From assembly GCA_030065715.1 (NCBI GenBank), contig JASJDF010000002.1:1-54521 (forward strand): a DNA stretch of 54,521 nt, read 5' to 3'. Of the stretch, positions 252 through 52,979 are shown piece after piece. Below the pieces are notes generated by a model. The model did no database searches, was not told the origin of the DNA, and worked only from the letters and a program-made list of their open reading frames with translations. The DNA is from Xenococcaceae cyanobacterium MO_188.B19 (GTDB taxonomy: Bacteria > Cyanobacteriota > Cyanobacteriia > Cyanobacteriales > Xenococcaceae). Position 1 is the stretch's first letter; every line of letters starts with the position of its first letter. Made by a program: the position numbers and the translations under genes.

Positions 252-1736
252 CTAGAAACTCAAATTACATTCAAATTTAGTTTGATTCTTTCTTTTTAGT
301 TCGATTTGTACCTCAATCTTGGTTCCGTGATCAACGAAGTTTAACAGTCCCCATTGTTTACTACCTGCAATAGCTCCTGTTTTTAGCTCTTCTTCCTTTG
401 GCTCAATCATATATTTGGCTCCATTATAAGGTCCACCTTTTACTGACCCCCTACTGTCTAAGGCAGCCACCTGAATTACAGGAAATGAACCCCCACCATT
501 TGTGGCATAACTATTAACTGTTCCTTTTTGGCCATCATCAATTGCCAACATATGAGCATCTCCTGATAGCATTAGTAATTTGTTGATTTGATTTTCTTGA
601 ATAAAGTTAGCTATTTCTTCTCTTTCTTCTGGATATTTATCCCATGCTTCCTTGGTCTTAAAGCTTTTTTTGCCTCCAGCTATCCAAGGTAAACTATTTA
701 CCCAGATTATTAATCCTTCTTTGTTAGCCTCTTGATTAATTTTCCCTGCCATTAATTGTCTAAAAAACCATTCTTTTTGTGTTGTCCCTAAAAGACTTTT
801 TACTGACTTATGCTTTTCTTCTTGTAAGCTATCTTTATAGAAACGGTTATCAGTCATCACAAATCTTATTCTTCCAATGACAAAAGATTGATAAATAGCT
901 CCTATTTCTTCTGACTCTCCTAGAGGATAGTGAGGTACTTGTTCTCGATAAGCTTGACTGGCAATATTCTTTAGAGGATAAGTTCCATCTGCATTGTTAG
1001 TCCCGTAATCATGATCGTCCCAGATGTAAGCAAGAGGTATATTTTGGTAGAGATTTCTTTGTCGCTCTTGAGTCATGACTAAATGATAATTTTTTCTATA
1101 ATCATCAAGGTTTTTTTCTTTCAAGCCCAACCCAGGGAGATCATTTCTGTAATGCAAATCTCCCATATGAATAAATAAGGCTAAAGGAGAATTTTTTCCG
1201 TTTTCATCTGGCTCTTGATATTCCCTAATAATCTCAAATACTTTACTATTACTAACTCCCTTACTGATAAATTTCTCAATAGTTCCACCTGCACAAGCAG
1301 AACAACCTACTGCAAAACTATATTGTTTATTAACTTTTACTGTTTTAAATTGGAGATTTTCTCTCCTGGGATATCTTCGACCATCCGCTATAATTACATA
1401 GTAGTAAAGAGTATTTTCTTCTAAATCAACTAGGTTAAATGTAGCTATTTGATGAGTCAATGAACTTGCTTCAACCTTTGTAATTCCTTCTTCAGTACTT
1501 AAATCAGAATTTTTACTATAAAAAACTTGAATATAATTTTTACCTTTTTTTACTTGATTATTTAGTTTGGCTTTAATCGTTATCGAGTTATCTGTTACTG
1601 AACCAATCCAACACCAATTACACTTAGTAGTATTTAATTCATCAGCTACATACTTTTTTCTCGAAGCCAACAAAAAAAACAGCACTGCCAAAAACACTCT
1701 TCGATTAAATCTTTGGTAGATCCAGGCTTTTTCCAT
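252..1736 (-). CDS. PhoD-family alkaline phosphatase / calcineurin-like metallophosphoesterase, N-terminally anchored or secreted
   Basis: 494-aa ORF. N-terminal hydrophobic segment (FLAVLFFLLA). Metallophosphatase motifs HMGDLHY, WDDHDYGTNN and LSGDAHM occur in PhoD-like order. Confidence 0.75.
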   Translation of the reverse strand: MEKAWIYQRFNRRVFLAVLFFLLASRKKYVADELNTTKCNWCWIGSVTDNSITIKAKLNNQVKKGKNYIQVFYSKNSDLSTEEGITKVEASSLTHQIATFNLVDLEENTLYYYVIIADGRRYPRRENLQFKTVKVNKQYSFAVGCSACAGGTIEKFISKGVSNSKVFEIIREYQEPDENGKNSPLALFIHMGDLHYRNDLPGLGLKEKNLDDYRKNYHLVMTQERQRNLYQNIPLAYIWDDHDYGTNNADGTYPLKNIASQAYREQVPHYPLGESEEIGAIYQSFVIGRIRFVMTDNRFYKDSLQEEKHKSVKSLLGTTQKEWFFRQLMAGKINQEANKEGLIIWVNSLPWIAGGKKSFKTKEAWDKYPEEREEIANFIQENQINKLLMLSGDAHMLAIDDGQKGTVNSYATNGGGSFPVIQVAALDSRGSVKGGPYNGAKYMIEPKEEELKTGAIAGSKQWGLLNFVDHGTKIEVQIELKRKNQTKFECNLSF

Positions 1737-7108: not shown

Positions 7109-8359
7109 CTACTTCTTCTGACCGCGCAATGAAACAAAGCCAGCATCATCAACGTACGCCTGACCTTGCCCCGATAAGATGATGTTAGAGATCGCAGTAC
7201 CAGCAGCTTCGGAGTTGGGGCGATCAGTATTTACCAAAGTCAACCTCCGTACCAGAGGATAAGTACCTCGGCTGAAAGCTTCCTTGTTAGTCTGTCCGTC
7301 ACTCAAAAACGGGTCAACATAATTAACGACTTCAGGATTAACAACACTACTTTGACCCAATGTTAAAAACTTCAGTAAACTCTGGTTCTGAACTAAGCTT
7401 GCCGAAGCATAGCCAATTGCCCCTGGTGTATCGATAACTTTTCTAACTGCTAGGGTGTGATTAGAAGCATAGTCAATCTTGGCGTTATCACTGACCTCGA
7501 ATCCTAGTGCTTCCACATTTTCTTTAGAGAGAATCACAGGAGTAATCGGTAAATCTTTACCCCCAAGTTGTTGCCAGTTGCTAATCTTTCCTTGAAAAAT
7601 AGACATCAATTCTTTAATTGTGATTTTGTTGACTGTTAATTCTGGATGGGTGTAAAAGACGATGCCATCAACAGCGATCGCATTTTCTTGTAATTGAATA
7701 TTTTGCAGTTTAGCTTTGGCGTATTCGGTGGGACTTAGAGGTCTAGCGTTAAAGACAAAATCGATATCCCCTGCCAGCAACATATCTATGGCTACAGAGT
7801 AACTGGGGTCTTCATAACTGGGACTCGTATATCTAGACGCAAAGTTAGGAAAAGCATTGACTATTTCTGCGACCAATCCTGCTTTTAGCAACGCTGCAAA
7901 ATAACCGTCACCAGAATAAGAAAATATGCCACCAGGGACATTCTCCACGTCTTTGATTGCCCTGACTAACTTAATACCACCACCATTTACTGATTCTACT
8001 TGGGGAATTTTATCGACTTTAGCCGTAGCATTGTTGCTATTAAAAAATAATTGATGGGTCAATAACAATAATGAAATAAATCCCACCACAATCCCTGAAG
8101 CATTCTGAGGCTTTAACAATTCTTTTTGCCAATTATTTAATTTAGAGTGATTAACTGGCTGAACCTGTTTGTTTCTGGGCTTTTTATAAAGCTGTTGCTT
8201 GGTAACTGTTTGACCTTGAGGCTTATTAGTAATTACTTGGTTTAATTGTTGAGACGGAAATAAAGATTCTCCACAGATATCACACTTATCATTATTGGGG
8301 GGATTCAGATCATAATGACAGTTAGGACAGATTATTTTACTATTTTTTAGCTGCTCCAT
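7109..8359 (-). CDS. zinc-ribbon / TM / PstS-like (PBP_like_2) periplasmic binding-domain protein
   Basis: 416-aa ORF. N-terminal CPNCHY...CDICG zinc ribbon, one TM (GIVVGFISLLLLT), then IAVDGIVFYTHP...ELMSIFQGKISNWQQLGG, typical of phosphate-binding-protein-like domains. Confidence 0.65.
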   Translation of the reverse strand: MEQLKNSKIICPNCHYDLNPPNNDKCDICGESLFPSQQLNQVITNKPQGQTVTKQQLYKKPRNKQVQPVNHSKLNNWQKELLKPQNASGIVVGFISLLLLTHQLFFNSNNATAKVDKIPQVESVNGGGIKLVRAIKDVENVPGGIFSYSGDGYFAALLKAGLVAEIVNAFPNFASRYTSPSYEDPSYSVAIDMLLAGDIDFVFNARPLSPTEYAKAKLQNIQLQENAIAVDGIVFYTHPELTVNKITIKELMSIFQGKISNWQQLGGKDLPITPVILSKENVEALGFEVSDNAKIDYASNHTLAVRKVIDTPGAIGYASASLVQNQSLLKFLTLGQSSVVNPEVVNYVDPFLSDGQTNKEAFSRGTYPLVRRLTLVNTDRPNSEAAGTAISNIILSGQGQAYVDDAGFVSLRGQKK

Positions 8360-15061: not shown

Positions 15062-18000
15062 ATGCTCAGTATCAATACTGTTACTTCAGGTATCAGAGAA
15101 AAAGAAGAATACTATACCGAAGATGAATCCTTAACCCAGTCTAAGGAGAAGTATTATAGTGAGTCTGAATCTCAAGATAAGTCTCAAGCTAAAACTGCTA
15201 CTCAAAATAAAGTCGCTAAACTGACTCAAGCGGTGGCTTATGGCAAAGGTGCAGCCGAATTAGGTTTAACTGGCAGTTTTAGTAAGGAAGATTTCAAATC
15301 TCTGTTTTATGGGTTTAAGCCTGGTTCACAAGAACGGATTAGAGGACATAGACCCAACGGAGACACTCAAGAACGATTGGCAGAAGATTTAACTTTTTCC
15401 GCTCCTAAAAGTGTTTCAATGGCTCTACATCTCAATGGAGACAATAGATTATTTGATGCTCATACTGAAGCTGTTAAATTCGTATTAGATGAAGTAGAAC
15501 AGCGATATATTCAAACTCGGATTCAAGTTAATGGAGAACGTAAAGTTGTTAACACTGGCAACTTAACTGCTGCTTTGATTCCCCACCATACTTCTAGAGA
15601 TGGGGATATGCAGCTTCACACCCATGCAGTAGTTTTCAATGGTACTAAAGGAGCAGATGGCAAATGGCGAGCTTTACACAATGATGCGATCGCTAACCAA
15701 GAATGGCTCGGTCATCTATACCAACAGAAATTAGCCCAGAAAGTGCAGCAATTAGGGTATTCCATCTATGAAACCAAGAATGGTTTTGAGTTAGAAGGTA
15801 TTTCTCCGCATGATATTAAGGTATTCAGTAAACGTTCTGTTGCCATCATTAATCAACTCAAACAGGAAGGAAAAGAAATCAATCATGCTAATCGTGATGA
15901 AGCTGCTTTAACTACTCGTAAAGCTAAAAACATTTCTCAAACCCTTACTGAATACCAACACCATTGGCAACAAGAAGCCAAAGCTAACAAAATCAAAGCT
16001 CCAAAAGCCAAAACCACTCCTGTTGCTCCTTTGGGTAAGAAAACAGCATCTCAACTATTAAATAGTGCCATTGCTCACCTTAATGAAACTTCGGTTTCTT
16101 TGGAGCGAGATGATATCTATAAATACGTTTATCGCTCTGGTATTCAGAATTTTAAGTTATCGGAACTAGACCAAGAAATTAGCACTAATAAAGAACTTCT
16201 GACTCTTAAAAACGATAAATTTACTACTGTTAAAGCCTTACAAAGAGAGATTAAAACCGTTAAGCAATGGATGAAGGGACAGGGTAAGAGATCCCCACTG
16301 TTAGATAATCCGAATCTAGAAGGAACTTTACTCAATTCGGGTCAGAAAGAAGCTATTTCTCGTACTTTAACTTCAACAGATACTCATCAGATTATTCATG
16401 GACTATCTGGAGTTGGTAAAACTACAGCTTTGGGGGTTTTGAGACAACAACTCAAAGGAAGCAAAGTAGAAATTAAAGGTTTTTCTCCTACTATTGAAGC
16501 TGCTGCCAAGTTAGAGTCCGAACTAAAGATTAAAACTAATACTGTGGCTCACTTAGTTCTAAGTAAGCCAGACAATAAACCTCATCAGCTATGGATTATT
16601 GATGAAGCTGGCATGATGAGTGCTAAGGGCGCAACAGCTATTTTAGACAAAGCAGATTCGGTCGGGGCAAGAATACTATTAGTGGGAGACAAAGGACAAA
16701 ATTCTAGTATTGAAGCTGGTAGTCCTTTGAGGTCATTAATCAGTCATGGTGCTACTACTCACAGTATTAGTAAGATTCTGCGTCAACAGAACACTATCCA
16801 AAAGCAAGCTGTAGAATTGATTGCTGAAGGTAATGGTAAATCCGCTTTAGAACTCCTCAACACTCATGGTTATGTCACGGAAATTGAGGATAGAGAAGAA
16901 CGTTCTCAATCTGTAGCCAAGCAATATCTGGAATTATCTGACAAAGAGAGAGAGCAAACCTTAATTGTTACTGGTACTAATAAAGAACGACGAAGCATTA
17001 CTCAAGAGATTAGGAAAGGACTTAAAACCGAAGGGAAACTAGGAGAATCCGTCAAAGCTGTACAATTAGTTTCTCGCAATCTGAGTAAAGAACAATCGAA
17101 GCAAATCAATAACTATGAAACAGGAGACTATATTAAACTCCATCGCGAGTATAAGGGAACTCCCTTACAAAAAGGTAAGCTCTACAAAGTTGAGGGTATA
17201 GAAGGTGAGCATTTACTGCTGAGTTCTCATGGTGGTAGGAATTATCGCTTTGACCCATCTAAATTCAGAGACAAACAAGTTTTTACCTCCGATGAAATTG
17301 AATTGGCTGTAGGGGATCAATTACGTTGGACTGCTGGAGCCGATAAGCATTTGGGTCAAATTAACGGTAAACAAGTAACAGTTACGAACTTTAACTCTAT
17401 GTCTATGAATGTCATGGACAATCAAGGTAAAACCCAGGAAGTATCATTACTCAAGCCTCTGCCGTTAGATTATAATCTCGTTTCTACTTCCTATCGCGCC
17501 CAAGGTAAATCCAAAAAGCGCGTCATTGTTTCTGCCACCTCAGACCCTACTTCTAGTCTCGAACCTTTCTACGTCAAGATATCCCGTCAAACTAAAGATT
17601 TAACCGTTTATACCCAAAACCTGGAAAAACTTAGGAAGTGGGTTGAACACTCTAATGCACAAGAAAATCCTCTCGAATTAATTAAGGAATATTATGACAA
17701 CCAACAAAGAACTCATGACAGCCATCTCTCAGTTAAATCAGCAGAATCAACAAATCAGAGAACGATTGGAGATCATCGAAACCCAGAACTCACAAATCCA
17801 AGAACGGATATTAATCAACAAAGAGCAAGTTCCTTATCTAGTCCAAGACGTACTCAACCAGTTTATCCAACAGTTGACCCAAGCCCTACAGAAACCGAAA
17901 AACAACGAGTTAAACGAATTGATCCAAGAACTAACCAACTCAATTCAGTCTCTTTACAACAAAATTCATTTCTCCAGCTTAATTTATCTCGATACCAAGG

Positions 18001-20017
18001 AGAAAATACAAGAGTTTCGCTCGCAATCACAGAATCACTCTCCTTCAACCGATTAGAAGATTTAGCAACTGCCATTACCAATGCTCAGGCTGAAGATGAA
18101 CTAAGAAATGCCATTTCTGGTGTTAATGTTTATCTCCAAGAATTTGAGCAAAAACTGAAATTAGAAGAACTAGATGCCATTTCTCATGCCCTGGATGAAT
18201 GGCAACTGGGACAACAGTTGGCACATACTATACAAATTGCCGATGAAACAGAACACAAATATCAAGATGTAATACTAGCCAAGATTGAATCGCAGAATAT
18301 CTCTCAACCAGATATACAACAATTGATTAAAGCTATCGAGCAATGGCACACACAACAAGATTTAACTACTGTTATTTCTGGGGCTAGTGAAGCGATCTCT
18401 CATCTTTACGAGCGAATTAATTCCTCTCCTGAATATAAGTTTGAGAATCTAGAACAATTAGCCAATGCCATATCTCAACAACAAGCTAGTGATGTCATAG
18501 CTGAACACCTATCTATTTTCCAAGAAGCATCCAAAGAACTTAAACACACAGTTCAGGAGCAATTAGATCGCTTAATTGATTCTGTCAATATTCATCCTGT
18601 ACTAGCTCAATCCACTAATCCCCAACTCCTTGATTCAGTTTCTTCTTTACGGGAGCAACGTACTAGGAGTGTTTTCTGGCAACCAGAATATCCTGACATT
18701 CTCCCCAGAGATCTAGATACTTACATTGATGAGAAACACTGGTCGGAATTTAAGAAGAGTGCTATTCATCCCGATTTAGTAGTTCTCAATGCTGAAACTA
18801 TTCAGGGTAATGAAGTTTACGAACGTCTCCTCTCTGATAAACTTGCCAAATTAGGTAGCGGTCAAGTAGTTACTCAGCCCATGAAACGAGTCATGATGCG
18901 ATATGACGACGTTGCTGATGGTGGTTGGTGGGGCAATGCTGGTATTGATGCTCTGTCTCTGGTTGATTTAGAGCCTGGTGAAAAACCAGATTATACCGAT
19001 TGGGGTTGTTTCAAACCCGATACTCCCCGTATTGATACTCAAAAGAGTGCCACCCGCAGCACACCAAAATATCGTAAGTATGAAAATCCTGCCAATGCTA
19101 AAAGAGTTCCTTTCTTACCCGATGTAAGCTCGCGCCTGGCTGAGAAGATTTACCAAAAACATGGCATTAATCCCACTGCCGAAGAACGGGAAAGTGGTTT
19201 CTGGTATGTTGTTAAACAATATCCTCAGATTCCTATTACCATTACTGAAGGGTTTAAGAAAACCTTATCTAGTCTATCTCAAGGTGAAGTTACCATCGGT
19301 TTAACGGGTGTTAACCATATTTATCGTTCCACTGATGATGACAAGAAGAAACTAGCCAAACGTCAACTCAATCCCGAAGTAGCTGTTTTTGCCAATCCCG
19401 AAAGAGAATTTAGATTTGCCTATGACCAAGATACCAAGGTTAAAACTATCATTAATGTCCGTCGTGACATGGTTAGGGGTATTGAGTTACTTGAGGAACG
19501 AGGGTGTAACGTTAAAGTACTTAAATGGAATAGTGAAGATGGCAAAGGGTTAGACGATCTAATTTCTCAAGCTGGACCGATAGCTTATGCTGAAGCTCAT
19601 CGCAATGCTGTCTCCTCTGACCTTGACAAGAAAATTCACTATCGTACTGAATATAATAAACTTGCCAAACGAGTCAAAGAAGAACTTGGTGATGATCTTA
19701 GTAGTGAAAGATTAGATTTAGAAGTTTATATTAGGTCAGTCCTCAAGGGTGACAAGGAAGACGGTACTAGAGTTGTTGGTGAATCAGATCAATCTCGTCT
19801 CTTAAAACAAGAAAAACCCCAGATGGTTAAGCCTTACCTTGAAGCCATTTCCCATGTTGCTGGTACTTATAAGAGTCTTAGTGATAAAAATACTCCTAAG
19901 TTGGATTATTGGGCTAAGAAGATGCTTAAACAACAAACAGCTAAATTTAAAGTTAAACAGGATGAAAGGCTGGAAAAACGGAAGATTATCACCAAAAATC
20001 AGGATTTGATTCTTTAA
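15062..20017 (+). CDS. MOBF (TrwC/TraI-type) relaxase fused to a RecD-like helicase and a C-terminal Toprim-like (DUF3854-type) domain
   Basis: 1651-aa ORF. N-terminal paired-Tyr motifs EEYYTED and EKYYSE. His triad HHTSRDGDMQLHTHAVVFN. Helicase motifs GLSGVGKTT, WIIDEAGM, LLVGDKGQ, STSYRAQGKS. Then a low-complexity linker and helical repeats. C-terminal ITITEGFKKT (Toprim Glu), FAYDQDTK (DxD) and GKGLDDL. Confidence 0.9.
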   Translation: MLSINTVTSGIREKEEYYTEDESLTQSKEKYYSESESQDKSQAKTATQNKVAKLTQAVAYGKGAAELGLTGSFSKEDFKSLFYGFKPGSQERIRGHRPNGDTQERLAEDLTFSAPKSVSMALHLNGDNRLFDAHTEAVKFVLDEVEQRYIQTRIQVNGERKVVNTGNLTAALIPHHTSRDGDMQLHTHAVVFNGTKGADGKWRALHNDAIANQEWLGHLYQQKLAQKVQQLGYSIYETKNGFELEGISPHDIKVFSKRSVAIINQLKQEGKEINHANRDEAALTTRKAKNISQTLTEYQHHWQQEAKANKIKAPKAKTTPVAPLGKKTASQLLNSAIAHLNETSVSLERDDIYKYVYRSGIQNFKLSELDQEISTNKELLTLKNDKFTTVKALQREIKTVKQWMKGQGKRSPLLDNPNLEGTLLNSGQKEAISRTLTSTDTHQIIHGLSGVGKTTALGVLRQQLKGSKVEIKGFSPTIEAAAKLESELKIKTNTVAHLVLSKPDNKPHQLWIIDEAGMMSAKGATAILDKADSVGARILLVGDKGQNSSIEAGSPLRSLISHGATTHSISKILRQQNTIQKQAVELIAEGNGKSALELLNTHGYVTEIEDREERSQSVAKQYLELSDKEREQTLIVTGTNKERRSITQEIRKGLKTEGKLGESVKAVQLVSRNLSKEQSKQINNYETGDYIKLHREYKGTPLQKGKLYKVEGIEGEHLLLSSHGGRNYRFDPSKFRDKQVFTSDEIELAVGDQLRWTAGADKHLGQINGKQVTVTNFNSMSMNVMDNQGKTQEVSLLKPLPLDYNLVSTSYRAQGKSKKRVIVSATSDPTSSLEPFYVKISRQTKDLTVYTQNLEKLRKWVEHSNAQENPLELIKEYYDNQQRTHDSHLSVKSAESTNQRTIGDHRNPELTNPRTDINQQRASSLSSPRRTQPVYPTVDPSPTETEKQRVKRIDPRTNQLNSVSLQQNSFLQLNLSRYQGENTRVSLAITESLSFNRLEDLATAITNAQAEDELRNAISGVNVYLQEFEQKLKLEELDAISHALDEWQLGQQLAHTIQIADETEHKYQDVILAKIESQNISQPDIQQLIKAIEQWHTQQDLTTVISGASEAISHLYERINSSPEYKFENLEQLANAISQQQASDVIAEHLSIFQEASKELKHTVQEQLDRLIDSVNIHPVLAQSTNPQLLDSVSSLREQRTRSVFWQPEYPDILPRDLDTYIDEKHWSEFKKSAIHPDLVVLNAETIQGNEVYERLLSDKLAKLGSGQVVTQPMKRVMMRYDDVADGGWWGNAGIDALSLVDLEPGEKPDYTDWGCFKPDTPRIDTQKSATRSTPKYRKYENPANAKRVPFLPDVSSRLAEKIYQKHGINPTAEERESGFWYVVKQYPQIPITITEGFKKTLSSLSQGEVTIGLTGVNHIYRSTDDDKKKLAKRQLNPEVAVFANPEREFRFAYDQDTKVKTIINVRRDMVRGIELLEERGCNVKVLKWNSEDGKGLDDLISQAGPIAYAEAHRNAVSSDLDKKIHYRTEYNKLAKRVKEELGDDLSSERLDLEVYIRSVLKGDKEDGTRVVGESDQSRLLKQEKPQMVKPYLEAISHVAGTYKSLSDKNTPKLDYWAKKMLKQQTAKFKVKQDERLEKRKIITKNQDLIL

Positions 20018-21182
20018 AGTCAAGTTCATTTGATTTTTCCTGGTTTGGGAATTGTTGCCGTGATAAAGACTTTTGAGACATCCTTAATTTGACTTGAGCT
20101 TGAGTTATTACTGCTTTTTCTGCCATTTTTCCCTGACCTCGCTCTGCCAATTTTCGATACTCTGGATCGTGATTTTTCATCATTTCAGTTACTATTTCTC
20201 TATCCATCCCCTCACTCAGAGCATTCATTGCCATCTTCTGAGAACCTGCCAAACCTATTTCTCTAACTTCTTGAGAGTAAGATTCATACAAGTTCTTTTG
20301 CGCCAGTCGCAGGAAATCCTGACGATTATATTTGACCAAATCCTTGGCAAACTCTCTTTCTATGGGGGTAATGTGAGAATCTGGAACTGAGTTAATAATC
20401 TCATCAATAGTATCAGGGGTAAGCTTATTGGCTTGTCTTAACCAAGTGACTGCTGCGGAGGGTCTTAACTTCATCATCTTACCAACCAAATCCCGATGAT
20501 ATTCATTAAAGTATGATGTCTGGGTGGTCATATACTTCTGAGGAGTCAAGTCTGGTTCGTTTGCCAAACGACCTGCAATAGTCATTCCAAAACTCATCCC
20601 ATTGTCAAATAATGGGGCTAAACTCTTATTGCCATTACTATCTACCCCGATTTCCCAATTTTTCCCATGTCTATCCTGATTAGCAATTAAACCATCGAAG
20701 ATAATTTGACCAGTCCACAAATCTAAACCATCGTTGATGTTATCGGGAGGCTCATAATTGGGAGGTAACTCAATATTATTTTCAGCGATAAAGTTGGTTT
20801 CTTCGTTGAAATTGTAAGGATAGTGACCCAACTGTTGAAAAATTACTGCTTCTGATTCTTGGTATGAAAGACCTTCTTGTTTGTAGTTAATGGTAATGAT
20901 CCCAGGCGCATTAGCATTTGACTCGAATGTTTCAGATAAGACAGCCAATTCATAACGAGCCATAGGAAGTTGCATGAGTTTTCCTATCTCATAAGCTACT
21001 TTTTCCGTCCAGTTTTTTCCATAGGGTCTATCTAATTTAACCAAACTCTTTCCCAACTGGGGATGGTTGACCCAAAACTTGGTCAAAAGACCTTGAAACT
21101 CTCGTCTATCTAGCTTTCCAGCCCTTCTGAGATCGGGAGTAATTTCAAAAACAGGATATATGGTCATTGATTTTTTTAACAA
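19989..21182 (-). CDS. HipA-family Ser/Thr kinase-like protein lacking the HipA N-terminal subdomain, with a C-terminal ~90-aa helical extension
   Basis: 397-aa ORF. Catalytic-loop motif LIANQDRHGKNWEI and Mg-binding-like LAPLFDNGMSFG (HipA_C-type). The 3' end overlaps the relaxase 3' end convergently by 29 nt. The 5' end overlaps the upstream ORF by 7 nt. Confidence 0.75.
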   Translation of the reverse strand: MLKKSMTIYPVFEITPDLRRAGKLDRREFQGLLTKFWVNHPQLGKSLVKLDRPYGKNWTEKVAYEIGKLMQLPMARYELAVLSETFESNANAPGIITINYKQEGLSYQESEAVIFQQLGHYPYNFNEETNFIAENNIELPPNYEPPDNINDGLDLWTGQIIFDGLIANQDRHGKNWEIGVDSNGNKSLAPLFDNGMSFGMTIAGRLANEPDLTPQKYMTTQTSYFNEYHRDLVGKMMKLRPSAAVTWLRQANKLTPDTIDEIINSVPDSHITPIEREFAKDLVKYNRQDFLRLAQKNLYESYSQEVREIGLAGSQKMAMNALSEGMDREIVTEMMKNHDPEYRKLAERGQGKMAEKAVITQAQVKLRMSQKSLSRQQFPNQEKSNELDFKESNPDFW

Positions 21183-21931
21183 GGCATGGAATTTAAGGGA
21201 AGGAGAAACGGGTGAGAATACAAGGTTTTATTTTCAATTGGTTCAATTTCACATTTAAGCAACAACCAACCACCATAAAGAGAATCTTGGCGATTAATTT
21301 GAGCTATACTTAGAGTCACATTTTTAACAGGACACTGACTCAAGAAAAAGTGAACATAATCAGGACAGTAACCGATGTGCAAATCCTGGCATAAAATTTT
21401 AGTCCGCTCAACATCAGTTTCAATAGTGAGTAATTCTTTTCCTGTTACATTATCCGCGAACTCTTTGACTCCTGGTTTATTGTCTTTAATGAAGTAAGCA
21501 ATATCATCACAAAGAAAATAAAATTCATAATTCCCATCTTTATTGGGAGCAACTTCAGGGAAGAAATCATAATCGTCGTTGTTTCTTCTTCCTAAACTCC
21601 GAGATAGATAAGTTATGGTGTCTCTTTTCCCTTTAGCTTCAGGAATCCCCAGAAAATCGTAGAGGTCTAGAGTATCGGGACGATGGGGAATACGGTTAAT
21701 TAGATTTGGACTTAATTGAGTTAAGTGCCAAAGTTTTTTATAACCAGCATCGGGGTTAAAAATCATCGAACGCAATCTCTGATAATTCGCCTCAAAGCCT
21801 TTGGTATAAGAGTAATAATAATTACCTTGACCATCCCAACTAATACGATAAATGGGAACCCATTGCTGTGGTAATTCTGGATCACTCTCACGCCAACCCA
21901 TGTACAAAGCCTTAATTTCTCTAGTTTCCAT
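21176..21931 (-). CDS. HIRAN-type domain protein with an N-terminal domain resembling the HipA N-terminal (HipS-like) pattern
   Basis: 251-aa ORF. WVPIYRISWDG..YYYSYTKGF, LSPNLINRIPHRPD, ITYLSRSLGRRNNDDYDFFPE and C-terminal IGYCPDYV match, from memory, a bacterial family annotated as HIRAN domain-containing. Translationally coupled to the kinase gene. Confidence 0.5.
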   Translation of the reverse strand: METREIKALYMGWRESDPELPQQWVPIYRISWDGQGNYYYSYTKGFEANYQRLRSMIFNPDAGYKKLWHLTQLSPNLINRIPHRPDTLDLYDFLGIPEAKGKRDTITYLSRSLGRRNNDDYDFFPEVAPNKDGNYEFYFLCDDIAYFIKDNKPGVKEFADNVTGKELLTIETDVERTKILCQDLHIGYCPDYVHFFLSQCPVKNVTLSIAQINRQDSLYGGWLLLKCEIEPIENKTLYSHPFLLPLNSMPC

Positions 21932-21946
21932 AGCTAGTTAAATTTA

Positions 21947-22591
21947 TCAAATGAAGATATAAATACTTTCTGGATTTGTCACAGCTTCGTCAAAATCAGT
22001 TTTGGTTGCCAAGTCAAAATTACGGTTTTTGGCATATTCCATAATTTCATCCATTTCACATCGAGCAGTCCGCCAAGTTTCTTCTACTGCTTCCAAAGCC
22101 ACATCCAAACCTATTTCACTGGCAAAATCAAAACAGTCAACAATAGTTTTCGGAATATTGTATATTTTTACTGGAATTCCTTCAATTATATGGGTTTCAA
22201 TTCCTTGCTCATAAATTGATTCGGGCATATAAACCACTTTTACGGGTAGAGAAGAATCTTGAGGATAAGATGAACCTTCAGGCAAAGCAATCCAAACTTC
22301 CCCTGGTAATTGAGTGGTAATACCATGAAATCTCAAAGCACTAGCTAGACAAACTACCGCTTTGGGAAAACTTACAGCTACTTCTACAAAACTGTGCCAT
22401 GTTTGAAAATCAGCATTTTCAGGCATATAAATTCCTTTAGCAGAAGGATAAAGTACTCCTGAATCTACTAATTTCTCAATTTGAACTTGATTCGCCCCTA
22501 TAGCCAAAATTTCAGTTTCAGTTAAAACACTTTTCCTTTCTCCCAAGCTATAAATGATTGATTTTAATTTTTGGTTAGTTATTTGATTCAT
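21947..22591 (-). CDS. AbiEi-like (type IV TA antitoxin family) winged-HTH regulator
   Basis: 214-aa ORF. LTETEILAIGANQVQIEKLVDSGVLYPSAKGIYMP followed by AVVCLASALRFHGITTQLPGEVWIALP matches the AbiEi N-terminal wHTH plus conserved SAL..HG.T pattern. Ends 15 nt upstream of the next gene. Confidence 0.65.
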   Translation of the reverse strand: MNQITNQKLKSIIYSLGERKSVLTETEILAIGANQVQIEKLVDSGVLYPSAKGIYMPENADFQTWHSFVEVAVSFPKAVVCLASALRFHGITTQLPGEVWIALPEGSSYPQDSSLPVKVVYMPESIYEQGIETHIIEGIPVKIYNIPKTIVDCFDFASEIGLDVALEAVEETWRTARCEMDEIMEYAKNRNFDLATKTDFDEAVTNPESIYIFI

Positions 22592-22706
22592 TTATGAACA
22601 AAGTTTTACTCTATCATCGGGATATTTTTGACAGATTTTGCTTCTGTCATTTTGCTTAATTTATTGAACTTGAAATGTGCGATCGCTTTTATTATACGCC
22701 ACTTTT

Positions 22707-22746
22707 TTATCAATTTGTTGACATTTTAACTTATCAATCTTGAACA
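22707..22746. promoter_or_regulatory. direct repeats in the promoter region of the AbiEi-like operon
   Basis: TTATCAATTTGTTGACA (22707-22723) and TTATCAATCTTGAACA (22731-22746), period 24 nt, 115-155 nt upstream of the AbiEi-like start codon. Confidence 0.35.
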
Positions 22747-22775
22747 GCGATCGATAGTAACATTCCTAGCAAAAA

Positions 22776-23219
22776 TCAATCAAAAGAAGTCGGGCTAAAA
22801 TCTGCCTTCCACTCCCCATCTTTCCGATACAAATCAAGATAATTACCTGACCAACTTCCATCGTTATAATCAATACTATATTTTAATTTGACAAATTCTT
22901 TCCCCATTAATATCCTTTTTTTAGAAAAATACTTAATCCCACCTTTTTGTTTTATGACATTATGTTTCTTAGACAAAGTTGAAGTGATATTCCGATTAGT
23001 AAAATGTCTAATACTGCTAGAGGTAAAAAACTTTAATGTTTGATCAATATCACCTTGTTCTATTAGTTTTATCAATTGTTCAGCTTTTTTCTCTGGATTT
23101 TGTGTTAGACAACCAGCATAAGCAACACAATTATGTATCGTCTCAAAATCTGTATTACAACCAGAAATCATAATACAACTACTCAGAAGAACTGTTAGGA
23201 TTGTTTTTCTTTGTTTCAT
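22776..23219 (-). CDS. small lipoprotein (possible entry-exclusion or surface factor)
   Basis: 147-aa ORF with lipobox LLSSCIMISGC. Located at the distal end of the transfer operon. The function is inferred from position only. Confidence 0.5.
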   Translation of the reverse strand: MKQRKTILTVLLSSCIMISGCNTDFETIHNCVAYAGCLTQNPEKKAEQLIKLIEQGDIDQTLKFFTSSSIRHFTNRNITSTLSKKHNVIKQKGGIKYFSKKRILMGKEFVKLKYSIDYNDGSWSGNYLDLYRKDGEWKADFSPTSFD

Positions 23220-23325
23220 TTTTCTTGAGCTTATAATTGTAAATCAAAATCTAATTCCTAGCGCCATCTTAACTATATAGTCTTGTAAGATTGCACTAAA
23301 TTAGGGGTATAAAAAGTTAGTAACT

Positions 23326-24069
23326 TTACATCAACAAAGATGATGCTTTTTCTTGGCTCAACTTTTGTTGTTGTTTCAAGTTAGATAATTTCACCTGTGC
23401 TTGTGCATTAGTAACTATTTGAGCGAGACTTTTATTGGCTAATCGCTCAGTGTTGGTTTTTGTGAGCATTATATAGCCAGAATCCTGACTTTTGAGCATA
23501 TTGGTCACATTTTCATGACTTACACCATCTTGTAAAGCATTCTTCGCAGTTTCTCTAGTTTTATCTAATCCTTTCGATTTAACATCTTTGGAGTAGCGAT
23601 CATACATTTCCTTAGCATCTGGATCTGGAGTATCCAGTTCTACTTTGGCTGATTGCTCTACCAAACGAGCTTTATCAATGAGAACTTTGCCATCTTTTAT
23701 ATGAAGCAGAGTTTTACCCCCCAAAGTTATCTTCATCGAGCCGTCGAAAGAGGCGGGATTCTTCAAAGCTTGTTTGATTAAATCTGCCTGTTTATCCGAG
23801 ATATTGGTGTTTTTTTGGTTAATATCACCATTTTTCATGCCGAAGACAGTTCGTCGATTGATGGAAATTTCCAGACGGTCTATGTTAATACCACTTTGAT
23901 CTAGTTTGCTAGCCAGACTTAAAGCATACTCTTCGGCTTTAGCTGAATGTCCCAAGTTTAGTTGAGATTCTGACTCTTTTTTAATTGGCTGAGGAGTAAT
24001 CTCCGACTCTTCTTTTTTGAGTTTAACTGCTGAATTGGTACTTGATTCTTGACCTTTTTCTTGAGACAT
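23326..24069 (-). CDS. hypothetical protein carrying the C-terminal helical module shared with the HipA-like kinase
   Basis: 247-aa ORF. C-terminal YDRYSKDVKSKGLDKTRETAKNALQDGVSHENVTNMLKSQDSGY...NAQAQVKL aligns with YESYSQEVREIGLAGSQKMAMNALSEGMDREIVTEMMKNHDPEY...TQAQVKL of 19989-21182. Confidence 0.55.
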   Translation of the reverse strand: MSQEKGQESSTNSAVKLKKEESEITPQPIKKESESQLNLGHSAKAEEYALSLASKLDQSGINIDRLEISINRRTVFGMKNGDINQKNTNISDKQADLIKQALKNPASFDGSMKITLGGKTLLHIKDGKVLIDKARLVEQSAKVELDTPDPDAKEMYDRYSKDVKSKGLDKTRETAKNALQDGVSHENVTNMLKSQDSGYIMLTKTNTERLANKSLAQIVTNAQAQVKLSNLKQQQKLSQEKASSLLM

Positions 24070-24078
24070 GATTTTCTC

Positions 24079-24450
24079 CTAAAGTGTTTTTTCCAAAGTT
24101 TTTTGTTGAGTTTTAGCAATGCCAGGATTTCTAGCTACAGCTTCTTCTATTTGTCCTTTTTTAAAGACTAGATTGGCGTATTTATCCACATCCCTGCCCA
24201 TAGCTTTCAGTCTCTTAGCTACAGGACTTTGTTTGATGGTCTTGATAATTTCCGATTTAGGAACCCCTTGTGCGATCGCTTTTTGAGCTTGCTTGACATC
24301 ATTTTTAGTTGAACTAATTTCAATTTTGGCTTTGGGTTTAATCCCCGATGCTATGGTTTCTACAACAGTCGAAGTAATTGATACTGATTTAACTACTACA
24401 TCTTCAACTTTATTTAGTAAGCTTTGAGTTGCTTGATCGTATTCAGACAT
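24079..24450 (-). CDS. hypothetical small protein with a weaker copy of the same helical module
   Basis: 123-aa ORF. AQKAIAQGVPKSEIIKTIKQSPVAKRL resembles the A.NAL..G...E.V..M.K core. Lies 15 nt downstream of the coupling-protein gene. Confidence 0.5.
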   Translation of the reverse strand: MSEYDQATQSLLNKVEDVVVKSVSITSTVVETIASGIKPKAKIEISSTKNDVKQAQKAIAQGVPKSEIIKTIKQSPVAKRLKAMGRDVDKYANLVFKKGQIEEAVARNPGIAKTQQKTLEKTL

Positions 24451-24465
24451 ATTGCTATTTCTCCT

Positions 24466-26169
24466 TTACGCATAAGTTGCTGCGTAAGCTTCCTGTTCTT
24501 GTTCACTTGGCAGCATTACTTCTGCCATTATTTGACGATTCATTCTTTCTACTTCTAGAGTTGTGTCTTTCAACAAATTTTCAAACTGCTGTCTCAGGAT
24601 AGGAAGCATTTTTTTATCCCATGCCATTTCACATCTTTTCCATAAGCGATCATTCCTTTTGTTAATCCAGACTTTCAATTTACGAGGACGATACTTATAA
24701 CTAGGACTTAAAATTACACATTCTCCTTGTCCCATTCGATTTATTTTGTCTCCTGTGATTAAGGGGGTTTTTTGTAAATGCTCCGTAGTATTTTTGGAGC
24801 TATTTTTTCCTGTTGAACGAGATTGAGTTTTATACCAAACATCTTTTTCTCCCAATGACTGAGCAAATTTATTGGCGGTTTCTGGATGACCTGTATTGAA
24901 GACTACTTTAGTTCCACAACTTGATAACATGGCATCTGCATCATCTCTAGTGTATTTTTTGACTACTTGAGAATTAGATTGATACCCCAATGCCATAAAC
25001 ATTCCATATTCCGCATTTCGATTAATCCACGATTCTGCATCTGGCAGCTTAATTGAGGTAAATTCATCTAGGAACAGTCCCAGTGTCCGTTCTCTTTTGA
25101 CTTTGGCATTGAGGTTTCGCATCATTAGCATATGTATCGCCATTGCTACTAATGGTGCGGTGGCAGCTTGATTTTCCTCGTCTATTTGGAAGAATACTAT
25201 TTGTTTTCCTGTTAGGTCTAGTGGAATGGTACTTTTTAACAGACAGGGCATGATGGACTTATCTACCAAATTCTGAAAATGAGTTACCGCACTTCCGACG
25301 ATCCCTGCTGATGTTGGTGCTGAACCACTGACTGACCTCAATCCTACTGCTGCTTCTCCTGTCCAAGAACTTATATCTACATCATTAAATTGACCATTCC
25401 TTTGCGCTCTGTCTAATCTAATGGCTAAATCTGGTAAGGTTAAAAACTTCCATGCCGATACTAAATCTGGAAATGGTGACTCTTTGCCTAACATAAATAC
25501 TGTCTTTAACAGTGCAATTCCTTGGGGTGAGAAGAAACTATCTTTTCTAGCTCCTGGTTCGCCAAAATTCTGTTCTAGTACTCTCGCCATTTCATAAGCT
25601 GCCTTAGCATCGTCCGCATCTTTCATGAAGTCGAGAAAATTTAGCCCATCACTGTAATCGAATCCTGGTGCATAAACATAACAATCGTAACCCTGAGATA
25701 GTGCATAGGCTGCGTGTTTTCTCATCAAGTTTCCTTTGACATCAAACACCAGCATCGTCCACTCTTGTTCTATACCTGACTTAATAGCTGGGTCAATGAA
25801 GGAGCGAGTCTTTCCTGCGCGAGATCTTCCTACTATAGATATGGCTGGCTGTAAATCACTTAAGACTAATCCTCTCTCTAATTCTAGAGCTACTTTATTG
25901 GGTTTCTGTTGCCTTATTTGTTTTCTACCTCGCTTAGTTCCTGCCCTTATTTCTCCCCCAGTCGCCCATCTGACATCACTTAGTTTTTTTCTATTACCTT
26001 GACTCAACAAGGACAACATTGCTAGTAGTACCATTAGCCCAAAATACCCCATAAACATGGGATTGGCTAATGGCTCTATAACTGGGGCAAATATTTCTTC
26101 TAATCCTACCTGCTGCTGACTTGAAGAGGCTTTAATATCTGTCATGATATGCCCCCATTCCTCCGCCAC
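24466..26169 (-). CDS. virD4: type IV coupling protein (VirD4/TraG/TraD family)
   Basis: 567-aa ORF. N-terminal TM (FMGYFGLMVLLAMLSLL), Walker A VGRSRAGKTRS, Walker B LGLFLDEFTS. The track start is a GTG. An ATG at 26145 preceded by GGAGGA is the more likely start. Confidence 0.85.
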   Translation of the reverse strand: MAEEWGHIMTDIKASSSQQQVGLEEIFAPVIEPLANPMFMGYFGLMVLLAMLSLLSQGNRKKLSDVRWATGGEIRAGTKRGRKQIRQQKPNKVALELERGLVLSDLQPAISIVGRSRAGKTRSFIDPAIKSGIEQEWTMLVFDVKGNLMRKHAAYALSQGYDCYVYAPGFDYSDGLNFLDFMKDADDAKAAYEMARVLEQNFGEPGARKDSFFSPQGIALLKTVFMLGKESPFPDLVSAWKFLTLPDLAIRLDRAQRNGQFNDVDISSWTGEAAVGLRSVSGSAPTSAGIVGSAVTHFQNLVDKSIMPCLLKSTIPLDLTGKQIVFFQIDEENQAATAPLVAMAIHMLMMRNLNAKVKRERTLGLFLDEFTSIKLPDAESWINRNAEYGMFMALGYQSNSQVVKKYTRDDADAMLSSCGTKVVFNTGHPETANKFAQSLGEKDVWYKTQSRSTGKNSSKNTTEHLQKTPLITGDKINRMGQGECVILSPSYKYRPRKLKVWINKRNDRLWKRCEMAWDKKMLPILRQQFENLLKDTTLEVERMNRQIMAEVMLPSEQEQEAYAATYA

Positions 26170-50870: not shown

Positions 50871-52979
50871 TTATTTTTTAGGGAGTGAAATTATAAATTT
50901 ACTACCTTTTCCTATTTCGCTTTCTACTCGTATTTTTCCTTGTTCTAGAGTTAAGAGTTCCTTGACTAAAAATAATCCTATTCCTTGTCCTCTATCGGTT
51001 TTATAAGATACCATAGGTTCAAAAATCTTTTTTTGCCGAGATAGTGGAATACCACTCCCATTATCTTCTACCCTAATTTCAATAAATTTTTGGCTATTTT
51101 TAGTTTTTACTTTAATTATAGGAGAGTAGTTATTATCCAGAGCTGACTCAGGTTTTACAGCATAAAAAGCATTATCAAGTAAATTTTCGATAATTATTTC
51201 TAAAGCTTCTCTATTTACTTTTGCTAAAGATAAACTGGAGTCATATATTTCTTGTACTGCAACTTGGTGTTCATATTGATCTCGTAAATGTGAAACCGTT
51301 TGTTCTATAAGTTGCTGAATTAACTCATTTATATTTGTTTTTTGTGAGTTTCTTCGTTTTCTTTTATTTGGAAGTTCCATAAATTCAGTAGTACGTTCTC
51401 TGTAAGTAGTAGTTCTCTGAATTTCTCTTAAAATTTTAGGATTTATTGTTTTAATTTCAGATATTTTTTTAAGTAAATCATTTAACTTTTGTGCTTCTTT
51501 AGTTTCTGAAAAAATTGAATCAGAAAATTCTCCATAATATTCTTGATGTTCTTTTTCAAGTTTCCTATAAATAGAAAATGATATCTGTTCTATAATTTTG
51601 GTACATTCCTCAATATATTGTGTATTGAATTTTATTAAACTTGAAGAATTTCCAAACTTATGATTAAGATAATTAGCTAATATTTTTAACCACAAAAAGT
51701 TTCTTCTTTCTTTATCTATCTGAACATAAGTATTAAGATAAAGAAAAGTTAGCCAGATTCCAAAAATTGGAGGAATAATAGGTATCCACCATCCAATCGT
51801 TTGAAAAGCTACAAGACTTGCGACGAACAATATGAAACTAAAAAATAGGCTAAACAAACCAGATATCAAGTATATTCTATCTATATTGAGAGAATAAAAC
51901 TTCAAAATAAGGAATGTCATGGTAGAGGTAGCGCACAGCAAAAGAATGTAGCTTATACCAAAAGGAGCTACTTTTAGTAAAGGTCGATTATCAAGGGCTG
52001 CGCTAATAATAGAACTGGCTACTTGTGCGGGAATTTCAACCCCGTAACTCCATTTTTGATATTTATTCCATTTCTTAATAGGAAGATAATGAATATCTGT
52101 GGTAGAAGAAGAAACATTTCCAATTAAAACAATTTTGTCTTGAAAAATATTGACAGGAATTTCTCCGTTTATAACATCAGTTACAGAATATTGAATAAAT
52201 GGATTATTGCCTTTGCGCCAGTTGACAAGGAAATCCCACCCGATTTTATTGTTAATGTAGCCTCCGTCAAAAGTCTTGATATCTTTTAAAGTTATCTGAG
52301 TTTCGTTTTTGAAAATTAAATAAGAGCCTAGGTCGATTAATCTCCCCTTCCATCCTTCTTTGGCTAAATAACTATAGCCTAAAGCTGTCCCAAGATAAGT
52401 GGCTGCTCTTTCCGTGTTGGGGTCATCTTTCTTCTTTCTGGGTCTGGGATCGATAAAAGATCGGCGTACAATATTGTCATCATCGGTGATGATATCTGAT
52501 GATGTCACTCTTTTAATACCAGAGGGGGGATTTGTGGTTGGAGGCAATACTTTTTCAATTCCCAACAGGTTGGGAGTAGAGCCAAAAATCTCTTGAAGAT
52601 TCTTATAAGCTGCTTGATTTTCCTCTTTTGATAATTGTCCAGAGACAACGGGAAGATCTCTATATAAATCCAGTCCAATTAAACGTGGTTGTTGTTTTCT
52701 GATTTTTTCAAGTAGAGTCGCTAATTTTTGGTCGGGAATAATTGACTCTTTGGATTTTTGAAGATCATCTTCAGTCCAAACAACCAAGACAATTCTTTCT
52801 TCTGTTGGTTCGGGAGTACTAAAATAGAATAGCAAATCATAGGATTTCCATTCCATCCATTGCAAAAATCCCAGGAGTCTCAAAACAACTACTGGGAAAA
52901 TAACAAATAACAGAATAGAGCCAAGTAATCGTAATCTTTTATTTACTTTTATATTGAACAGCTTTGATAATTTTCTCAC
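50871..52979 (-). CDS. CHASE2-domain sensor histidine kinase
   Basis: 702-aa ORF. N-terminal TM, an extracytoplasmic ~300-aa domain, then 3-4 TM segments (CHASE2 topology). H-box-like LANYLNHKFGNS. HATPase motifs NLLDNAFYAV, VEDNGSGIP, GQGIGLFLV. Confidence 0.75.
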   Translation of the reverse strand: MRKLSKLFNIKVNKRLRLLGSILLFVIFPVVVLRLLGFLQWMEWKSYDLLFYFSTPEPTEERIVLVVWTEDDLQKSKESIIPDQKLATLLEKIRKQQPRLIGLDLYRDLPVVSGQLSKEENQAAYKNLQEIFGSTPNLLGIEKVLPPTTNPPSGIKRVTSSDIITDDDNIVRRSFIDPRPRKKKDDPNTERAATYLGTALGYSYLAKEGWKGRLIDLGSYLIFKNETQITLKDIKTFDGGYINNKIGWDFLVNWRKGNNPFIQYSVTDVINGEIPVNIFQDKIVLIGNVSSSTTDIHYLPIKKWNKYQKWSYGVEIPAQVASSIISAALDNRPLLKVAPFGISYILLLCATSTMTFLILKFYSLNIDRIYLISGLFSLFFSFILFVASLVAFQTIGWWIPIIPPIFGIWLTFLYLNTYVQIDKERRNFLWLKILANYLNHKFGNSSSLIKFNTQYIEECTKIIEQISFSIYRKLEKEHQEYYGEFSDSIFSETKEAQKLNDLLKKISEIKTINPKILREIQRTTTYRERTTEFMELPNKRKRRNSQKTNINELIQQLIEQTVSHLRDQYEHQVAVQEIYDSSLSLAKVNREALEIIIENLLDNAFYAVKPESALDNNYSPIIKVKTKNSQKFIEIRVEDNGSGIPLSRQKKIFEPMVSYKTDRGQGIGLFLVKELLTLEQGKIRVESEIGKGSKFIISLPKK

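Follow-up and report, generated by a model that had tools for sequence, protein, structure and literature searches.

In alpha-proteobacteria, a C-terminal BID domain with a positively charged tail is found on relaxases, on the Beps of Bartonella and on VbhT of the conjugative plasmid pVbh, and the transfer of VbhT has been demonstrated (PMC5675462). VbhT (FIC-BID), FicT of M. extorquens and a PezT-BID protein of Chelativorans are all encoded beside relaxase or DNA transfer and replication (Dtr) genes (PMC5675462). In the XVIPCD, which is carried by the T4SS effectors (X-Tfes) of Xanthomonadales, a folded region binds the all-alpha domain of VirD4, and a Gln-rich tail is required for translocation (PMC8740702). 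The Legionella protein HipT (Lpg2370) is reported to act as an effector and also as a toxin of the toxin-antitoxin (TA) type (PMC9325769, PMC8262856). The principle of a C-terminal signal domain for type IV secretion systems (T4SS) that is common to relaxases and TA toxins is already known. The stretch of DNA analysed here (the window) comprises 54,521 nt of contig JASJDF010000002.1 of Xenococcaceae cyanobacterium MO_188.B19, and is a cyanobacterial conjugative element. Within it, a HipA-like kinase and a second protein, ORF247, are encoded between a relaxase and a VirD4/TraG-type coupling protein (T4CP), and both carry near their C-terminus the same helical module of about 75 aa, followed by a short tail. 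We consider it probable, from the sequence comparisons described below, that this module together with a tail of about 20 residues rich in Q, S and R acts as a T4CP-dependent recruitment and secretion signal in the conjugative T4SSs of cyanobacteria.

The sequence-only reading of this region had proposed that the kinase and ORF247 share a C-terminal module, and this was confirmed. BLASTP with compositional adjustment aligned kinase aa 296-387 with ORF247 aa 153-245 (33/95 identities, 35%; E 1e-13). A hidden Markov model (HMM) built from nine ORF247 homologues only recovered the C-terminus of the kinase (E 4.6e-16), and the reciprocal HMM from four kinases recovered ORF247 (E 1.1e-16); both were run against the 772 six-frame open reading frames (ORFs) of the window, among which no further ORF scored. 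Against a profile of 48 module sequences, the kinase gave an HHalign probability of 99.3%. When the module alone was modelled by AlphaFold2 (AF2) from the 48-sequence alignment, five helices forming a compact globular domain were predicted (pLDDT 96.1, pTM 0.84), and the module also modelled well inside whole ORF247 (pLDDT 88-94). The similarity could in principle have been due to chance or to composition, as might be expected of helical, low-complexity segments, and the helical nature of the region is all that speaks for this. Given the BLASTP score obtained under compositional adjustment, the reciprocal HMM values near 1e-16, the recovery of 32 clusters at E <= 1e-10 among 1.84e9 proteins (see below) and the high-scoring AF2 model, whose compact globular fold argues against a coiled-coil, this explanation can be regarded as refuted. 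The module is under purifying selection: between the window and locus L001 (loci fetched for comparison carry the prefix L), dN/dS is 0.21 for the kinase module and 0.21-0.26 for that of ORF247.

A weaker copy had been suspected in ORF123, and this held at the level of profiles only, over helices 2-5. BLASTP did not detect it, and a plain HMM gave only E 0.4-3.3. A profile-profile comparison using close ORF123 homologues reached a probability of 65%, and with the diverged ORF120-type neighbours of other T4CPs added to the profile, HHalign gave 89.8% (E 1.8e-6, 49 columns). The real profile scored 28.7, whereas none of 200 column-shuffled versions exceeded 19.3, ORF123 ranked third of 96 window ORFs against the module profile, and reciprocal HMM matches between ORF123 and the module had E values of 1e-3 to 6e-3. 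Since it is aa 55-103 of ORF123 that match helices 2-5, the protein is probably a divergent, N-terminally truncated paralogue of the module. The faint resemblance that had also been noted at the extreme C-terminus of the window relaxase was rejected, as this protein showed no module copy by BLAST or HMM, and HHalign gave 0.4% at an unrelated position.

When 1.84 billion representative proteins were searched exhaustively with a HMMER profile (inclusion E <= 1e-3), 62 module-bearing clusters were recovered, of which 32 scored at E <= 1e-10. In 59 of the 62, the distance from the end of the module to the C-terminus is 11-43 aa, mostly 15-25; the three exceptions are a truncated fragment, a TSP3-repeat protein (P0065) and a dubious match to an ankyrin-repeat protein (P0062). 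The last was not counted as a fusion, its module match being split over five stretches and overlapping DUF5663. The tails are enriched in Q (18.3%, versus 7-8% elsewhere), S (14% versus 8%) and R (10% versus 4%), have a mean net charge of +1.9, and many of them end in ...SRGRSR or ...LSR, while the module itself has a net charge of about 0.

Two types of architecture were recognized. In the core type, a variable N-terminus of 0-520 aa without Pfam match is followed by the beta-rich ORF247 N-domain (~105 aa), the module and the tail; it accounts for 37 of the 62 clusters by an N-domain HMM, and for 39 by BLAST clustering of N-terminal regions. In the enzyme type, the N-domain is absent and an enzyme is joined directly to the module and tail. 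Toxin families fused in this way are HipA-like kinases, AbiEii (P0023), HEPN (P0057) and HepT (P0037, P0039, P0042 and another in L016). Relaxases are represented by a MobA/VirD2 (MOBQ) protein, P0049, and, from a scan of the fetched loci, by a MOBF relaxase of the TrwC-helicase type in L012 (1177 aa), in which aa 1086-1160 match the module (E 1.3e-20). In a FolD-like protein (P0046; L010 4993-6189), a tetrahydrofolate dehydrogenase/cyclohydrolase is followed by the module and by a tail that is strongly basic. Its gene lies 1.3 kb from a MobA_MobL relaxase gene, and the protein is a surprising candidate for cargo. With at least seven unrelated N-terminal architectures joined to the module, among them toxins, relaxases, ORF247-type and FolD-like proteins, the earlier idea of a portable domain attached to proteins that have nothing else in common is strongly supported, and proved broader than could be noticed in the window itself. 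The N-domain of ORF247 gave no Pfam or PDB match. In its homologues (P0029-P0073) it is preceded by hypervariable stretches, as long as ~520 aa and also without Pfam match, that are reminiscent of polymorphic effectors.

No model in Pfam, NCBIfam, PADLOC or PHROG covers the module, nor does any PDB entry as judged by Foldseek and sequence profiles, and RefSeq labels the Acaryochloris homologues as hypothetical proteins. Neither this domain family and its toxin repertoire, nor its occurrence in this phylum, nor the ORF123/ORF247 core pair is described in the libraries and literature searched. A Foldseek search of the module model against PDB, which includes BID structures, had a best E of 1.0 with TM < 0.5, and there was no BID entry among the 42 matches. 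Likewise, no BID or related profile of Pfam or NCBIfam matched ORF247, the kinase or any of the 48 modules taken alone, with a cutoff as loose as E <= 1. The whole-ORF247 model found nothing significant in PDB by Foldseek. When family profiles of the module, ORF247 and ORF123 were run against PDB sequences, nothing was retrieved beyond a marginal match of the module profile to the Prp40 FF domain (E 0.008, ~40 residues), and FF structures were absent from the Foldseek matches of the module.

Recurrent but low-scoring matches point to a nucleic-acid-binding bundle akin to the C-terminal helical domain of RepB'/PriCT primases, which would tether its bearers to the origin of transfer (oriT) or to single-stranded DNA. 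RepB_primase_C (PF22448) matched 4 of the 48 modules with a best E of 4.6e-4, below the gathering score, and gave a sub-threshold E of 0.058 with ORF123; PriCT_1 (PF08708) matched one member, also sub-threshold (E 0.0017); and RepB' (3h20) appeared in the Foldseek lists with a probability of 0.54 and TMq 0.47. However, every one of these matches falls under the curated thresholds, the Foldseek E-values for RepB' are 1.7-8.9, and the profile search of PDB sequences misses it. The near-zero net charge of the module also sits poorly with such a role, as does the lack of any rationale for kinase, HEPN and AbiEii toxins that bind DNA, and we regard this explanation as very unlikely.

The order T4CP, ORF120/123-type gene, ORF247-type gene is kept in L001, L003, L014, L015, L016/17, L019 (Acaryochloris marina pREB7) and L032 (A. 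marina S15), and it persists despite T4CP identities that go down to ~32-47%. A T4CP or relaxase gene lies no more than 10 kb away in 12 of the 13 independent loci for which at least 6 kb of context was available. Fusions of a toxin to the module occupy a slot between ORF247 and the 3' end of the convergent relaxase gene, and the cargo of this slot changes: a PDC-M03B/A::module pair in the window and L001, AbiEi-AbiEii::module in L004/L005, where the convergent relaxase shares 92% identity with its counterpart in the window, and MNT-HepT::module in L016, while the slot of L003 is without cargo. Most telling are two loci at which different bearers share a closely similar tag. The MOBF relaxase of L012 and a HEPN toxin encoded three genes downstream are 57% identical over 104 aa of module and tail, and both terminate in NDDLTL; similarly, in L004 the module and tail of the ORF247-type protein and of the AbiEii toxin are 66% identical. 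The contig that encodes the MOBQ relaxase P0049 is small and plasmid-like, with a NikA-like accessory gene, ParA, ParDE and PIN. No T4CP gene is seen on it, as would be expected, since a mobilisable plasmid must borrow its coupling protein.

The main alternative is that these are the arrangements of a donor-internal domain for partner binding or assembly, directed at ORF123, the relaxosome or the T4CP, that scaffolds or regulates transfer, or sequesters toxins, without the bearer being translocated. Hetero-oligomerisation is suggested by ORF123, a partial paralogue whose gene separates those of the T4CP and ORF247 in every locus. The ORF247 family looks like part of the core and not like cargo, and the window relaxase is without the module, so that ORF247 could be an adaptor. 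What such a domain leaves unexplained is its extreme C-terminal place and the conserved, unstructured Q/S/R tail, as well as its acquisition by four unrelated toxin families and by the MOBQ relaxase of a mobilisable plasmid, and on balance we think this rather unlikely.

The enzymatic part of the window kinase is well defined. The PDC-M03A profile aligned with kinase aa 6-294 over positions 2-302 of 305 (E 5.2e-45), and Pfam HipA_C matched with E 1.8e-5 (24.9 bits, under the cutoff of 30.5). Residues D165, R166, H167 and N170 of the D-R-H-x-x-N loop, and D188 and G190 of the Mg-binding D-x-G motif, are invariant among seven homologues. The adjacent upstream gene, coding for 251 aa, matched PDC-M03B (E 1.2e-21) and is presumed to specify the antitoxin or regulator of the kinase; the pair also occurs in L001 and L018. 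A literature search for PDC-M03, which is listed as a candidate system, turned up a single passing mention and no functional study. Because the PDC-M03A profile ends at aa 294, and plasmid-borne relatives of the kinase stop at aa 291-293, the module is best seen as an add-on to the enzyme. Two distant kinase homologues (P0016, P0017) lack the module and have unrelated C-termini. Compared with L001 and L023, the tail of the window kinase has a 6-nt indel and reads through the ancestral stop codon. The convergent kinase and relaxase genes overlap by 29 nt in the window (19989-20017) and by 4 nt in L001 and L004.

The reading of module and tail as a secretion signal has its basis in the C-terminal position, the Q/S/R tail, the occurrence on relaxases and on the toxins of the slot, the conserved gene order and the tags shared within loci. 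Relaxases are the canonical substrates of T4CPs. On comparative grounds, the explanation with the best support appears to be a signal for docking or translocation that the VirD4-like T4CP recognises, and it is ranked first because the features of the module match those of BID and XVIPCD except in sequence and fold. In the mechanism we propose, the folded helical domain would dock on the T4CP (24466-26169), possibly helped by the ORF123 paralogue, and the flexible tail would start translocation. The ORF247-type protein would be a resident client or adaptor of the system, and relaxases of related and mobilisable elements would carry the same tag. Toxins of TA and defence systems that landed in the cargo slot, namely HipA-like PDC-M03A, AbiEii, HEPN and HepT, would have gained this tag repeatedly. 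Given the tagged toxins in the slot, the window kinase is a candidate for a conjugation-delivered effector, with PDC-M03B as its likely neutraliser. The wider proposal, that the tag is lineage-specific, is read by the VirD4-type T4CP on relaxases, a core protein and rotating toxins alike, and leads to routine co-delivery of toxins, is put forward more tentatively, as a possibility that falls a little short of being probable.

Several observations weigh against the secretion signal. The window relaxase does without the module, so the module cannot be the sole recognition route in this element. The FolD-like fusion is no obvious toxin, and a HepT::module gene in L013 is found on a chromosomal-looking contig of 6.7 kb with no transfer genes visible. 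The modules of the kinase and ORF247 are only 35% identical in the window, and 36% in L001, and in an unbootstrapped neighbour-joining tree the window kinase module clades with P0019/P0023, of the L004-type lineage. Lastly, the tails of related kinases end in ...NRGRSL (P0013) or ...DRGLEI (P0012), whereas that of the window kinase ends in ...ELDFKESNPDFW and has a net charge of -1. Without the basic end of its relatives, the tag may be decaying here, and may be less functional on the window kinase than in its relatives, with the helical domain still under purifying selection.

The low identity between the two modules, and the grouping of the kinase module with the L004-type lineage, indicate that the kinase cassette was probably imported. 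In view of the 35% identity and the affiliation with another element lineage, we reject the idea that the kinase module arose by a recent in-situ duplication of the 3' end of ORF247. Exchange at the slot is apparent from a comparison with L004 and L005. The C-terminal 625 aa of the relaxases of the window (15062-20017) and L005 (5242-7119) are 92% identical, most of the differences falling within the final ~70 aa, whereas the T4CPs of the window (24466-26169) and L004 (264-2015) are only 58% identical, and the ORF247 types and toxin cargo differ. The abiEi gene of the window is an orphan that lacks an AbiEii partner there, and its product is 61% identical to the AbiEi protein that precedes AbiEii::module in L004 (7447-8133). 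The first ~60 residues of these two proteins are ~92% identical and the remainder ~50%, a step that suggests a recombination breakpoint inside abiEi, by which the PDC-M03 pair would have replaced an AbiEii::module toxin. The disparity between relaxase and T4CP identities and the mosaic AbiEi proteins together indicate that the slot is recombinogenic, and the element as a whole is a mosaic. AbiEi_4 genes are also found ahead of MNT-HEPN::module in L011/L012. In L004, and also in L005, the ORF123 homologue is interrupted by a Tn7-like unit (TnsA-like protein of 895 aa and TniB-like protein of 391 aa), and its N- and C-terminal halves lie at 2003-2224 and 6372-6647 in L004.

Such traffic raises the question of whether the module regulates the toxins, by antitoxin docking or autoinhibition, or takes no part in transfer and simply results from the recombination of cassettes at the slot. 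The exchange of toxin cassettes at the slot, evident from differing toxins beside relaxases that are 92% and T4CPs that are 58% identical, and the mosaic structure of the AbiEi proteins would be in keeping with this. The neutralisers are, however, unrelated to one another (PDC-M03B, AbiEi, MNT) while the module is the same; relaxases carry it too, as does the ORF247 family, whose members are not toxins, and its protein sequence is subject to purifying selection, all of which makes this alternative highly improbable.

If the secretion signal is real, toxins delivered together with the DNA could enforce establishment of the plasmid before the antitoxin is expressed, or could disable non-kin recipients, and 'defence' toxins of the PDC-M03/HipA-like, AbiEii and HEPN/HepT kinds would have to be considered as possible offensive or addiction cargo. 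The tag might then also be usable for delivering engineered proteins into cyanobacteria. The proposal names a receptor-ligand pair, the T4CP (with or without ORF123) and the module with its tail, and homologues of the T4CP, ORF123-type and ORF247-type genes are present on plasmids of cultured Acaryochloris. The module also provides a new domain family with which ~60 clusters of 'hypothetical proteins' can be annotated.

The positions of the genes and domains discussed are given in Table 1. The window T4CP includes the TrwB_AAD_bind region, relatives of this protein are found on 131 cyanobacterial plasmids, and genes for an M23 peptidase and a VirB4-like ATPase lie further along from it. Close relatives of the region are in cyanobacterial metagenome-assembled genomes (MAGs) and on Acaryochloris plasmids. 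A genome scan of GTDB with the ORF247 alignment retrieved a single locus only, in a Xenococcaceae MAG, and a search of PLSDB plasmids for near-identical DNA gave no match. A signal of the lipoprotein type (...ISGC) and a weak match to DUF4878 mark the 147-aa ORF at 22776-23219. It is missing from the syntenic loci L001 and L003, and so represents an additional insert that separates ORF247 from the toxin cassette. A Q/E-rich ORF of 120 aa (17694-18056, forward strand) lies in an alternative frame inside the relaxase gene, within the long low-complexity linker from the helicase to DUF3854, and is probably not a gene. Cargo near the edges of the window (252-1736, 7109-8359 and 50871-52979) includes genes for a PhoD-like phosphatase, a PstS-like phosphate-binding protein and a CHASE2 histidine kinase, and a PstS-family gene adjoins the relaxase gene on A. 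marina pREB7 (L019) as well.

Table 1. Genes and domains of the module-bearing region, in window coordinates.
Feature	Position	Strand	Evidence or remark
MobF/TrwC relaxase-helicase with fused DUF3854	15062-20017	+	Pfam, NCBIfam; convergent with kinase
HipA_C-like kinase ORF, 397 aa	19989-21182	-	
Kinase tail, 29 aa, Q/S-rich, extended and acidic (…NQEKSNELDFKESNPDFW)	19992-20078	-	overlaps relaxase 3' end
Kinase module, five helices, aa 294-368	20079-20303	-	BLASTP, HMM, HHalign
Kinase domain, HipA_C-like, PADLOC PDC-M03A	20304-21182	-	gene-caller start ATG 21167
PDC-M03B partner gene of kinase, 251 aa	21176-21931	-	abuts/overlaps kinase start
AbiEi-family protein, 214 aa	21947-22591	-	PADLOC AbiEi E 1.1e-59
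Lipoprotein-like ORF, 147 aa	22776-23219	-	
ORF247	23326-24069	-	
ORF247 tail, 19 aa, SNLKQQQKLSQEKASSLLM	23329-23385	-	
ORF247 module, aa 151-228	23386-23619	-	BLASTP, HMM, AF2
ORF247 N-domain, aa 40-146, beta-rich	23632-23952	-	AF2 secondary structure, N-domain HMM
ORF123, small conserved gene between T4CP and ORF247	24079-24450	-	
ORF123 partial module, aa 55-103, helices 2-5, then K/T/Q-rich tail	24142-24288	-	HHalign
VirD4/TraG-type T4CP	24466-26169	-	T4SS-DNA_transf E 3e-32, TraG-D_C E 7.5e-29, TrwB_AAD_bind E 4.6e-26

The window kinase and its module can be compared with three known systems. Its core matches PDC-M03A over the full length, the upstream gene corresponds to PDC-M03B, and the catalytic motifs are those of HipA, but canonical proteins of this family end where the module starts, and what is new is the module and the conjugative setting. 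A precedent for a toxin of the HipA family that doubles as an effector, in a pathogen with a T4SS, is HipT of Legionella. With the XVIPCD, the module shares the general design of a conserved C-terminal domain attached to diverse toxic N-terminal domains, and of a folded part followed by a Gln-rich tail; in the module proteins a tail with 18.3% Q follows a folded domain of five helices. It differs in that the two are unrelated in sequence and fold, no Pfam or Foldseek match to XVIPCD being obtained from the module, and in that the XVIPCD is ~120 aa long, serves a chromosomal, bacteria-killing T4SS that is not conjugative, and is unreported on relaxases.

A further close parallel is the BID domain. 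In both cases a C-terminal helical domain is followed by a short charged tail, is found on relaxases as well as on TA toxins that are encoded beside relaxase or Dtr genes, and has been fused repeatedly and independently to different toxin families. The likeness would be one of function only. The module is shorter (~75 aa, compared with ~100-140 aa for BID), belongs to another phylum (Cyanobacteriota) and to another lineage of T4CP and T4SS, is joined to HipA-like, AbiEii, HEPN and HepT toxins instead of FIC and PezT, and is borne by a dedicated core gene pair, ORF123/ORF247. Documented cases of toxins delivered along with conjugation are, to our knowledge, still essentially confined to BID-tagged ones in alpha-proteobacteria. 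An independent and structurally unrelated tag in cyanobacteria would make the hitch-hiking of toxins on conjugation a general strategy that has evolved convergently.

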